From Escherichia coli (GTDB lineage Bacteria > Pseudomonadota > Gammaproteobacteria > Enterobacterales > Enterobacteriaceae): 64,000 nucleotides of DNA. This document shows positions 10,078 through 13,347 of this stretch, in pieces (the first letter of the stretch is position 1; the number at the start of each line of letters is the position of its first letter). The position numbers and the translations under genes are program-made. The stretch lies in NCBI RefSeq assembly GCF_036507355.1, contig NZ_AP027877.1, one strand, 5' to 3'. The notes under the pieces are model-generated. The model saw only the letters and a program-made list of their open reading frames with translations, made no database searches and had not been told where the DNA came from.

Positions 10078-11499
10078 ATGATGAGCAAAATAAACCAAAC
10101 GGATATCGATCGGTTGATTGAACTGGTCGGCGGGCGCGGCAATATTGCGACGGTGAGCCACTGTATTACTCGCCTGCGCTTTGTCCTCAACCAACCGGCC
10201 AATGCCAGACCGAAAGAAATTGAGCAACTCCCCATGGTGAAAGGCTGTTTCACCAATGCCGGGCAATTTCAGGTGGTGATTGGCACCAATGTGGGTGATT
10301 ACTATCAAGCACTGATTGCGTCAACCGGACAGGCGCAGGTTGATAAAGAGCAGGTAAAAAAAGCCGCCCGGCAGAATATGAAATGGCATGAGCAGTTGAT
10401 CTCTCATTTCGCGGAGATCTTCTTCCCGCTGCTGCCCGCGTTGATTAGCGGCGGTTTGATCCTCGGTTTTCGCAATGTGATCGGCGATTTGCCCATGAGC
10501 AACGGTCAGACGCTGGCGCAAATGTACCCTTCCCTGCAAACGATCTACGATTTTCTATGGTTGATCGGTGAAGCGATCTTCTTCTACCTGCCGGTCGGGA
10601 TTTGCTGGTCAGCGGTGAAAAAAATGGGCGGCACGCCGATCCTTGGTATCGTGCTTGGCGTGACACTGGTTTCTCCACAGCTGATGAACGCTTATCTGCT
10701 CGGGCAGCAGCTGCCGGAAGTGTGGGACTTTGGCATGTTCAGCATCGCCAAAGTAGGCTATCAGGCGCAGGTGATCCCGGCACTGTTAGCCGGGCTGGCG
10801 CTGGGCGTTATTGAAACTCGCCTTAAACGCATCGTGCCGGATTACCTCTATCTGGTGGTGGTGCCCGTCTGTTCGCTGATCCTCGCGGTGTTCCTCGCCC
10901 ATGCGCTGATTGGTCCGTTTGGTCGCATGATTGGCGATGGCGTTGCCTTTGCGGTACGTCACCTGATGACCGGCAGCTTTGCTCCGATTGGCGCAGCATT
11001 GTTTGGCTTCCTGTACGCCCCGCTGGTGATCACCGGGGTACACCAGACCACGCTTGCTATTGATTTGCAGATGATTCAAAGCATGGGTGGTACGCCAGTG
11101 TGGCCGCTGATTGCGCTGTCGAATATCGCTCAGGGCTCCGCCGTGATAGGCATTATCATTTCCAGCCGCAAGCACAATGAACGCGAGATCTCCGTGCCTG
11201 CCGCTATCTCCGCCTGGCTTGGGGTCACTGAGCCTGCAATGTACGGCATCAACCTGAAATATCGCTTCCCGATGCTGTGCGCGATGATTGGTTCTGGTCT
11301 GGCAGGATTGCTATGCGGCCTGAACGGCGTTATGGCGAATGGCATCGGCGTAGGCGGCCTGCCGGGAATTCTCTCGATTCAACCGAGCTACTGGCAGGTG
11401 TTTGCGCTGGCAATGGCTATCGCCATCATCATCCCGATTGTACTCACCTCGTTTATCTATCAGCGGAAATACCGCCTGGGCACGCTGGACATTGTTTAA
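10078..11499 (+). CDS. treB: PTS trehalose-specific EIIBC component
   Basis: 473-aa ORF; EIIB cysteine motif (HCITRLRF) then polytopic membrane domain. Confidence 0.95.
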   Translation: MMSKINQTDIDRLIELVGGRGNIATVSHCITRLRFVLNQPANARPKEIEQLPMVKGCFTNAGQFQVVIGTNVGDYYQALIASTGQAQVDKEQVKKAARQNMKWHEQLISHFAEIFFPLLPALISGGLILGFRNVIGDLPMSNGQTLAQMYPSLQTIYDFLWLIGEAIFFYLPVGICWSAVKKMGGTPILGIVLGVTLVSPQLMNAYLLGQQLPEVWDFGMFSIAKVGYQAQVIPALLAGLALGVIETRLKRIVPDYLYLVVVPVCSLILAVFLAHALIGPFGRMIGDGVAFAVRHLMTGSFAPIGAALFGFLYAPLVITGVHQTTLAIDLQMIQSMGGTPVWPLIALSNIAQGSAVIGIIISSRKHNEREISVPAAISAWLGVTEPAMYGINLKYRFPMLCAMIGSGLAGLLCGLNGVMANGIGVGGLPGILSIQPSYWQVFALAMAIAIIIPIVLTSFIYQRKYRLGTLDIV

Positions 11500-11548
11500 T
11501 TTTCTTCGGGGCGCAATTGCGCCCCCTCGCATTCGCAGGAATAACGTA

Positions 11549-13204
11549 ATGACTAATCTTCCCCACTGGTGGCAAAACGGCGTTATCTACCAGATTTATC
11601 CAAAGAGTTTTCAGGACACCACGGGTAGCGGCACCGGCGATTTACGTGGCGTTATCCAACGCCTGGACTATCTGCATAAACTGGGCGTTGATGCCATCTG
11701 GCTAACCCCCTTTTATGTCTCTCCCCAGGTCGATAACGGTTACGACGTAGCGAACTATACGGCGATTGATCCCACCTACGGCACGCTGGACGATTTTGAC
11801 GAACTGGTGACGCAGGCAAAATCGCGCGGGATTCGTATCATTCTCGATATGGTGTTTAACCATACCTCTACCCAACATGCCTGGTTTCGCGAGGCGCTGA
11901 ACAAAGAAAGCCCTTACCGCCAGTTTTATATCTGGCGCGATGGAGAACCAGAAACGCCACCGAACAACTGGCGTTCAAAATTTGGCGGTAGTGCGTGGCG
12001 CTGGCATGCGGAAAGCGAACAGTACTATTTGCATCTCTTTGCACCAGAACAGGCGGATCTCAACTGGGAGAATCCAGCGGTACGCGCAGAGCTGAAAAAA
12101 GTCTGTGAGTTCTGGGCCGATCGTGGGGTCGACGGGTTGCGCCTGGATGTGGTGAATCTGATCTCCAAAGACCCGCGTTTCCCTGAAGACCTGGACGGCG
12201 ACGGGCGTCGCTTCTACACCGACGGGCCACGAGCACACGAGTTTTTGCACGAGATGAACCGCGATGTGTTTACGCCACGCGGGTTAATGACCGTAGGTGA
12301 AATGTCCTCCACCAGCCTTGAGCATTGCCAGCGATACGCGGCTCTGACAGGCAGTGAATTGTCGATGACCTTTAATTTTCATCACCTGAAGGTCGATTAT
12401 CCCGGTGGTGAAAAATGGACGCTGGCTAAACCTGACTTTGTGGCGTTGAAAACATTGTTCCGCCACTGGCAACAAGGAATGCACAACGTAGCATGGAATG
12501 CCTTGTTCTGGTGTAACCACGATCAGCCGCGCATTGTTTCTCGCTTTGGTGATGAAGGTGAATACCGCGTGCCTGCGGCAAAAATGCTGGCGATGGTGCT
12601 GCATGGCATGCAGGGAACGCCGTATATCTACCAGGGCGAAGAGATTGGCATGACCAACCCGCATTTCACGCGCATTACTGACTATCGCGACGTAGAGAGC
12701 CTCAATATGTTTGCCGAGCTGCGCAACGATGGTCGTGATGCCGACGAATTATTGGCAATCCTCGCCAGTAAATCCCGTGACAACAGTCGCACGCCCATGC
12801 AATGGAGCAACGGCGATAATGCCGGGTTTACGGCTGGCGAACCGTGGATTAGCCTGGGCGATAACTATCAACAAATCAACGTAGAAGCCGCGCTGGCCGA
12901 TGAGTCCTCGGTGTTTTACACCTACCAAAAGTTAATCGCACTACGTAAGCAAGAAGCCGTTCTGACATGGGGCAATTACCAGGATCTGCTGCCAAACAGC
13001 CCTGTATTGTGGTGCTATCGCCGTGAATGGAAGGGGCAAACCTTGCTGGTCATTGCCAACCTTAGCCGTGAGATCCAACCCTGGCAGCCAGAGCAAATGC
13101 GCGGCAACTGGCAGCTTGTGATGCATAACTACGAAGAAGCCTCACCACAACCCTGTGCCATGACTTTACGGCCTTTTGAGGCTGTCTGGTGGTTACAGAA
13201 GTAA
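11549..13204 (+). CDS. treC: Trehalose-6-phosphate hydrolase (GH13)
   Basis: 551 aa from ATG at 11549 (MTNLPHWWQNGVIYQIYP) after AGGAA SD; GH13 motif GVDGLRLDVVN. Confidence 0.95.
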   Translation: MTNLPHWWQNGVIYQIYPKSFQDTTGSGTGDLRGVIQRLDYLHKLGVDAIWLTPFYVSPQVDNGYDVANYTAIDPTYGTLDDFDELVTQAKSRGIRIILDMVFNHTSTQHAWFREALNKESPYRQFYIWRDGEPETPPNNWRSKFGGSAWRWHAESEQYYLHLFAPEQADLNWENPAVRAELKKVCEFWADRGVDGLRLDVVNLISKDPRFPEDLDGDGRRFYTDGPRAHEFLHEMNRDVFTPRGLMTVGEMSSTSLEHCQRYAALTGSELSMTFNFHHLKVDYPGGEKWTLAKPDFVALKTLFRHWQQGMHNVAWNALFWCNHDQPRIVSRFGDEGEYRVPAAKMLAMVLHGMQGTPYIYQGEEIGMTNPHFTRITDYRDVESLNMFAELRNDGRDADELLAILASKSRDNSRTPMQWSNGDNAGFTAGEPWISLGDNYQQINVEAALADESSVFYTYQKLIALRKQEAVLTWGNYQDLLPNSPVLWCYRREWKGQTLLVIANLSREIQPWQPEQMRGNWQLVMHNYEEASPQPCAMTLRPFEAVWWLQK

Positions 13205-13216
13205 ATCTTCGCTAAG

Positions 13217-13249
13217 CCCCGGTAATGCCTGTCATTCCGGGGTTTTGTC
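13217..13249 (+). terminator. Rho-independent terminator after treC
   Basis: CCCCGG...CCGGGG stem followed by TTTTGTCT. Confidence 0.7.
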
Positions 13250-13347
13250 TGTCAGCATGTTGTTTTTGTTGATTTTTCAACCAGAAAATTCATTAAAAAA
13301 TTTACATAACGCTGTAGCGCCCGTCATCCGTACGCTCTGCTTTTTAC

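Follow-up and report, generated by a model that had tools for sequence, protein, structure and literature searches.

The trehalose operon treBC is usually drawn as a simple two-gene unit, and the question raised by the 64,000-nucleotide stretch of Escherichia coli chromosomal DNA analysed here (the window) is what a perfect palindrome between the two genes might be doing. In the window, treB (PTS trehalose transporter IIBC) occupies 10078-11499 of the plus strand and ends in the stop codon TAA (11497-11499), and treC (trehalose-6-phosphate hydrolase) follows at 11549-13204 on the same strand (ORF list and RefSeq annotation), leaving a gap of 49 nt at 11500-11548. The gap is identical in MG1655, and the names treB and treC are those given by the RefSeq annotation in 5,425 of the 5,426 complete E. 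coli genomes (451-nt query around the site). The palindrome is regarded here as the DNA of a real, conserved, functional and ordinary RNA element. It is likely that this hairpin acts in the sense-strand RNA as a leaky terminator combined with an exonuclease barrier, giving a treB-only mRNA and more treB than treC message.

The first-pass annotation had described a perfect 18-bp palindrome with a GC stem and no T-run after it, and its coordinates and sequence proved exact: GGGGCGCAATTGCGCCCC, at 11508-11525, reads identically on both strands. No perfect palindrome in the window is longer (the runner-up has 14 bp), nor does the window contain a second perfect 7-bp hairpin with an all-GC stem and a loop of 3-8 nt. 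Starting from the treB stop codon, a pyrimidine-only spacer UUUUCUUC (11500-11507) is followed by the 5' arm GGGGCGC (11508-11514), the loop AAUU (11515-11518), the 3' arm GCGCCCC (11519-11525), a weak tail CUCGCAUUCGC (11526-11536) and the treC ribosome-binding site AGGA (11537-11540) with its ATG (11549-11551); the hairpin starts 8 nt past the stop codon. The centroid RNA fold of the surrounding 91 nt contains the 7-bp stem with the AAUU loop, and the hairpin alone is predicted at about -15 kcal/mol. An anti-terminator or alternative pairing was considered and rejected, the 91-nt fold showing this hairpin only (overall z-score 0.04). A minus-strand terminator was likewise discarded, since that strand has GAAGAAAA after the hairpin and no gene in need of termination. 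The gap is also non-coding, because its length varies from 39 to 57 nt among relatives, out of frame and not in multiples of three, and conservation begins at the ATG. The treC frame itself stays open upstream across the gap to a TTG at 11402, giving a mechanical ORF call of 600 aa as against 551; the variation in gap length and the position of the ribosome-binding site identify the annotated ATG at 11549 as the real treC start.

The length of the palindrome is not significant by itself, because a perfect palindrome of at least 18 bp occurs in 23% of Markov-1 simulated 64-kb sequences, a frequency that would suit a chance palindrome without function. Its significance derives instead from conservation and from published RNA 3'-end data. 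For the former, 80 treC loci were taken across Enterobacteriaceae, with one genome per species, and in the 77 loci with both gene ends the sequence lying between the treB stop and treC start codons was extracted; the comparison covers this family, the TreC protein homologue search having returned Escherichia, Salmonella and Citrobacter sequences only and no outgroup beyond it. The hairpin is present in 75 of the 77 loci, as GGGGCGC-N3-6-GCGCCCC or a variant with compensating stem changes, and the spacer between stop codon and stem measures 5-15 nt. In a 71-sequence alignment, three blocks of the gap are invariant and no others: the GGGG, a CC in the 3' arm and the AGG that belongs to the ribosome-binding site; the neighbouring ATG start codon is invariant as well. 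Identity to E. coli amounts to 98.1% in the stem and 60% in the loop, while the neutral comparison, four-fold degenerate third positions among codons 1-120 of the adjacent treC, gives 46.8%. A stem kept at 98% against 47% at neutral sites, with compensatory changes, together with the dominant RNA end that three data sets place at the hairpin (see below), leaves the chance explanation with practically negligible probability, and it was conservation that led to its rejection.

The loop varies freely, from 3 to 6 nt in length, and its commonest form among relatives is the non-palindromic AGTT, the palindromic AATT being limited to E. coli, Kluyvera and Enterobacter soli. As only the stem is conserved, the perfect palindrome that the first-pass annotation emphasised is correct for this sequence and incidental to the element. 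The flank is also patterned: the up to 8 nt preceding the stem are 93% pyrimidine across orthologues, and the base adjoining the stem is never A (C in 52, T in 23 and G in 1). As a side observation, the called gap of one Citrobacter locus (Citrobacter sp. Res13-Sevr-PEB04-36, L014:2415-2491) is 77 nt long, with treB ending about 30 nt early relative to a close relative (L009) and the hairpin and its flank unchanged, which could reflect a premature stop codon or a frameshift in the treB C-terminus.

The stem behaves as a paired structure. In an ungapped alignment of 54 distinct sequences, base pairing is kept in 98.9% of cells and changes on both sides occur at three of the seven stem pairs: one is a C-G replaced by U-A, seen in Citrobacter gillenii and a relative, and the other two are pairs that have been swapped in Buttiauxella. 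Not one of 500 shuffles gave pairing and covariation as high as those observed. Symmetric double changes could also track a co-evolving protein, and half-sites GGGGCGC and GCGCCCC conserved around a variable 4-bp centre would fit a dimer site, as they would if a dimeric regulator (TreR or another) bound the double-stranded DNA there and the site served as a roadblock or second operator within the operon. However, a loop of 3 to 6 nt would shift the spacing of such half-sites, and the single-sided changes have a bias that DNA recognition would not favour, five of them leaving a G·U pair on the sense strand (L002, L065, L074, L079 and the E. coli variant H35) and one a C·A (L022). This asymmetry is modest and favours a sense-strand RNA structure.

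A further test of the DNA-site explanation is provided by the putative operator of the operon itself. The palindrome GGGAACGTTCCC upstream of treB, conserved in 75 of the 77 loci, is probably the operator of TreR, a LacI-family regulator, and it proved unrelated to GGGGCGC-N4-GCGCCCC when the two were compared. The hairpin shares with LacI-family operators an inverted repeat in the tre locus, but it lacks their central CG, varies in loop length and carries wobble-type substitutions. In the window, GGGAACGTTCCC forms the core of a perfect 14-bp palindrome, CGGGAACGTTCCCG, located between treR and treB at 9999-10012 and followed by TTTTT, 36-49 nt ahead of the start site published for treB (MG1655 4466210, window 10048); CGGGAACGTTCCCG also resembles a treR terminator, and one sequence may be doing both jobs.

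The two loci that lack the small hairpin are equally instructive. In Buttiauxella brennerae (L075:2383-2500) and B. gaviniae (L076:2337-2500), the gaps extend to 118 and 164 nt, respectively, and an ERIC-like imperfect palindrome stands in the hairpin's place. Of 33 positions in the B. gaviniae core, 31 agree with the MG1655 repeat that lies between aceF and lpd, while B. brennerae retains the outer arms of the repeat without the core; the predicted RNA hairpins reach -29 kcal/mol in B. brennerae and -59 kcal/mol in B. gaviniae. The ERIC-like palindrome at the treB–treC junction of these two Buttiauxella species thus offers a long RNA hairpin; ERIC (enterobacterial repetitive intergenic consensus) elements are found in intergenic regions that are transcribed, and the E. 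coli hairpin has no sequence relationship to ERIC, is ten times shorter and is not repeated. Since an unrelated structured repeat stands in for the hairpin in these two species, the required property would be RNA structure. Taken with an RNA 3' end that maps exactly at the foot of the stem, the wobble pairs and the dissimilarity to the putative TreR operator, this replacement makes the protein-binding site suggested by the first-pass annotation very improbable, and that suggestion is not retained.

Published maps of RNA ends place the element in its transcript, and MG1655 positions were converted by taking the window coordinate as 11500 + (4464758 − MG1655 coordinate). Term-seq of cells grown in LB to OD 0.4 reported a dominant curated 3' end at 4464728(-), equivalent to window 11530, with 425,606 average reads; it was classed as the primary 3' end of treB, and the printed sequence ends in ...GGGGCGCAATTGCGCCCCCTCGC (Adams et al., 2021, PMC7815308, Supplementary file 1). 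The end after treC (4463010) had 64,109 reads in the same data and five ends internal to treB had 24,000-49,000 each (PMC7815308). SMRT-Cappable-seq in rich medium, which follows whole 5'-triphosphate transcripts, resolved two isoforms from a single start site at 4466210 with 8,155 reads, a treB-only isoform ending at 4464727 (window 11531) and a treB+treC isoform ending at 4463009 (Yan et al., 2018, PMC6131387, Supplementary Data 1, Rich_TTS). Both ends were flagged novelTTS, that is, absent from RegulonDB at that time (PMC6131387). The counts listed for 4464727 are 514 (at the site), 54 ('passing') and 6,108 (within the next 50 bp downstream), those for the long isoform 1,148, 309 and 684. 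They are used qualitatively, as the columns for 4464727 do not add up, with 54 'passing' reads against more than 2,000 that reach the treC end; read in this manner, transcripts started at the treB promoter mostly have their ends at the hairpin or slightly past it, and the smaller part extends through treC (PMC6131387). A third data set, TRS, lists a terminus at 4464717-4464732 (window 11526-11541), peaking at 4464726 (11532) and classed as 'Alternative primary in TU' for treB (PMC10687069, file 4). The treB 3' end is therefore already present in three public tables (PMC7815308, PMC6131387 and PMC10687069), while the TERMITe tables contain no treB entry and the list of bicyclomycin-sensitive Rho termination regions contains neither treB nor treC (PMC7815308), which is indirect evidence for an end formed independently of Rho.

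The ends of the three data sets, at 11530-11532, lie +5, +6 and +7 past the stem and 5-7 nt ahead of the treC ribosome-binding site. Since this site and the ATG both lie 3' of the mapped end, the treB-only RNAs lack both. Furthermore, treB accumulates over treC, as seen from 425,606 against 64,109 Term-seq reads, with the end at the hairpin about 6.6 times that at the operon-end terminator, and from the short and long isoforms of SMRT-Cappable-seq; 3'-end counts of this kind reflect RNA stability as well as the frequency of end formation. The proposal of the first-pass annotation that the palindrome is a processing or stability element is borne out by these maps, and the comparison of treB and treC transcripts that it recommended has in effect been made genome-wide, the published data showing unequal levels. 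Discoordinate expression, with the treB message exceeding that of treC, is thus what these data suggest.

Two further Term-seq signals were noted in the window. The ridA 3' hairpin TCCGGGCTATCATGCCCGGA (5744-5763), followed by TTAAGTCTG without a T-run, has an end at MG1655 4470491 (window 5767) 4 nt past its stem, with 188,006 reads (PMC7815308), making two hairpin-ended transcripts in the window that lack a U-run. Another end at window 10082 (MG1655 4466176), 4 nt into the treB frame, has 47,785 reads, a Rho score of 0.86 and an intrinsic terminator score of 1.44, and four more ends lie inside treB (PMC7815308); early termination, pausing or decay may lie behind them.

The next question is whether RNA polymerase stops at the hairpin or whether the 3' end is left there by decay, as termination and processing with trimming give the same signal in Term-seq, SMRT-Cappable-seq and TRS. 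The stem-loop itself, with seven G-C pairs and a 4-nt loop, agrees with the GC-rich stem of 5-14 bp and short loop expected of an intrinsic terminator. However, no U-rich tract lies directly 3' of the E. coli stem in the tail CUCGCAUUCGC: the sequence following the hairpin in the window is CTCGCATTCGC, without a T-run and with only one U in its first 5 nt, and a simple terminator scan did not call the E. coli hairpin. The tail scores 2.05 (2.05-2.09 over CUCGCAUU(C/U)GC), as against 4.61 for the comparator, the canonical operon-end terminator 3' of treC (13217-13257; CCCCGG...CCGGGG followed by UUUUGU, with a Term-seq end). Owing to this poor U-tract and the absence of a scan call, efficient intrinsic termination at the E. 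coli tail is doubtful, and because the U-tract is deficient the E. coli copy is not filed as a canonical intrinsic terminator.

The orthologues present a different picture, and many of them qualify as canonical. The U-run rule of the terminator scan is passed by 28 of 76 orthologous hairpins, the tail score is at least 2.5 in 54 of the 76, and the 10 nt 3' of the stem are 50% T overall. Runs of 5-6 U follow the stem in Klebsiella, Kosakonia-like, Trabulsiella and Pluralibacter loci; the Klebsiella tail is CCTTTTTTG, the counterpart of CATTCGC or CATTTGC in E. coli, and the scan calls the hairpins of Klebsiella michiganensis L006 (…CCCC CCTTTTTTGT) and of locus L058 (…CCCC TTCTTTTTTG) terminator-like. 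In Salmonella and Citrobacter, the tails score 1.54 and about 2.1, respectively, and the stem is equally conserved there. The statement of the first-pass annotation that the palindrome is not a canonical terminator therefore holds for E. coli, where 2.05 stands against 4.61, but it does not extend to dismissing termination, in view of the U-runs in 28 of the 76 orthologues.

A pure decay barrier would account for the E. coli data without any polymerase stop: an endonuclease (for example, RNase E) would cut the full-length treBC mRNA within treC or ahead of it, and trimming by PNPase or RNase II would carry the new end back to the stem, leaving a protected treB fragment comparable to that at the malE–malF REP. 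The weak U-tract of E. coli, a Term-seq end just 5 nt past the stem, the strict retention of the hairpin in Salmonella and Citrobacter despite the weakest tails, and the strong Term-seq end at the ridA hairpin, which indicates that such ends are common, all fit this explanation. Nevertheless, a barrier to decay needs no U-runs, yet runs of 5-6 U are found in several genera, and the TRS peak and the SMRT-Cappable-seq end lie at the usual release distance of a terminator, the TRS and long-read ends falling on the UU of the tail at about +6 to +8. Protection from decay as the only activity of the hairpin is hence a possibility to be taken seriously, though one held tentatively.

In the preferred reading, which combines leaky termination with protection, treBC is transcribed from a single promoter upstream of treB, the hairpin would form in the RNA after the treB stop codon, and it would define the 3' end of a discrete and abundant treB-only mRNA. 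Only RNAs that read through the hairpin would carry the treC ribosome-binding site, such that treC would be expressed from those alone and the two genes would be uncoupled. The hairpin would have been ancestrally a U-tailed, factor-independent terminator; its leaky termination would be clear in the genera with a U-run after the stem, whereas E. coli, Salmonella and Citrobacter, whose U-tract appears to have decayed, would retain it only weakly. In addition, the stem would block 3'-to-5' exonucleases and stabilise RNAs ending there, whether these were terminated at the hairpin or cleaved farther downstream. The structure, its conservation and covariation, the in vivo 3' end and the two isoforms are shown by the data, whereas the respective shares of termination and protection, and any consequence for the ratio of TreB to TreC protein, are inferred; no measurement of TreB and TreC at the protein level was found.

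Two other functions can be weighed against the same observations. The first is that a small regulatory RNA or sponge, cut from the treB mRNA end, could have the hairpin as its 3' module, or else that the hairpin could protect the 5' end of a processed treC mRNA; in both cases the balance of treB to treC mRNA would not be its main concern. RNAs bound by Hfq or ProQ have a similar 3' module, in which a GC hairpin comes after a U-rich tract, the UAA|UUUU just past the stop codon may resemble an RNase E site, and the 3' end is very abundant in Term-seq. However, the 3' U-tail required by Hfq is absent from E. coli, the last codons of treB are not conserved above coding-sequence expectation in the 71-sequence alignment, the Rfam 15 covariance models gave no match to the gap at E-values up to 10, and the literature search found no small RNA at the locus, which together render this function quite unlikely.

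The second is that the leaky terminator might be adjustable, serving as an intra-operon valve whose read-through varies with the distance between ribosome and RNA polymerase and with growth or osmotic state. This idea is prompted by the location of the stem only 5-15 nt past the treB stop codon and by the base before the stem that is never A. According to a 2026 preprint, an A adjoining the stem lowers terminator read-through. The never-A base would be consistent with a terminator that is kept leaky. Such a valve is a speculative and unlikely elaboration; if true, its read-through would set the TreB:TreC ratio and consequently the steady-state level of trehalose-6-phosphate. This metabolite is the inducer of TreR as well as an intermediate of osmoprotective trehalose synthesis. 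As a variant of the same idea, the abundant hairpin-ended treB 3' fragment could have a regulatory role of its own.

Variation within E. coli bears on how the K-12 data are to be read. The hairpin is unchanged in three of four variant genomes sampled; H37 carries GGGGCGT-CATT, and in H35 the basal stem pair is G·U. One common polymorphism was observed near the hairpin, at position 11534, which is C (CATTCGC) in K-12, the window and 754 genomes, and T (CATTTGC) in about 4,650 genomes, or ~86% of complete E. coli, as well as in almost all other genera. The K-12 allele has one U fewer in an already weak tail, and the K-12 3'-end data may understate termination in typical strains. Apart from this, three matches to the treB–treC junction lie on plasmid-typed records, a few genomes have two copies, and one complete E. 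coli genome lacks the treB–treC region.

The treBC operon therefore yields two messages in unequal amounts, and the element that probably underlies them is kept across Enterobacteriaceae, which makes it relevant to the modelling or engineering of trehalose uptake. It also provides a clean natural illustration that a short hairpin can mark a dominant RNA end even when no U-run follows. In the searchable literature, no paper on this hairpin, its conservation or its function was found, nor any mutational test of it. No general principle is changed by these results, as making more of an operon's first gene than of its second by means of a hairpin is ordinary in bacteria, and intra-operon hairpins that attenuate or stabilise are textbook.

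It is with two such classes, the intra-operon attenuating terminators and the intercistronic stabiliser hairpins, that the behaviour of the treB–treC hairpin is best compared. With leaky intra-operon intrinsic terminators, such as the rplL–rpoB attenuator and the read-through terminators of SMRT-Cappable-seq (PMC6131387), which give the genes before and after them unequal mRNA levels, it shares a GC stem-loop right after a stop codon, an RNA 3' end a few nucleotides past the stem, and a short and a long isoform from one promoter. The proper U-run of that class is found in the Klebsiella, Kosakonia-like and Trabulsiella orthologues, whereas the U-tract is degenerate in E. coli, Salmonella and Citrobacter. 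With stabilising hairpins that hold back 3' exonucleases, such as the malE–malF REP and the hairpin after pufA in Rhodobacter, it has in common a stable hairpin placed between the two genes of a sugar-uptake operon and an upstream segment more abundant than the downstream one, with no U-run needed; it is a stable, structure-conserved hairpin between the cistrons of one transcript, as expected of an intercistronic stabiliser. Unlike the malE–malF REP, it is single-copy, locus-specific and 18 nt long, and lies outside the REP/BIME family: a REP/BIME repeat was rejected because the hairpin occurs at one place per genome in 5,411 E. coli genomes and is the sole hairpin of its type in the window, and 510 kb of related loci yielded it just once more, again at a treB–treC junction (L072). 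On the basis of these likenesses, the hairpin appears to combine the features of a leaky terminator, retained with its U-run in several genera, with those of a stabilising hairpin that needs none.
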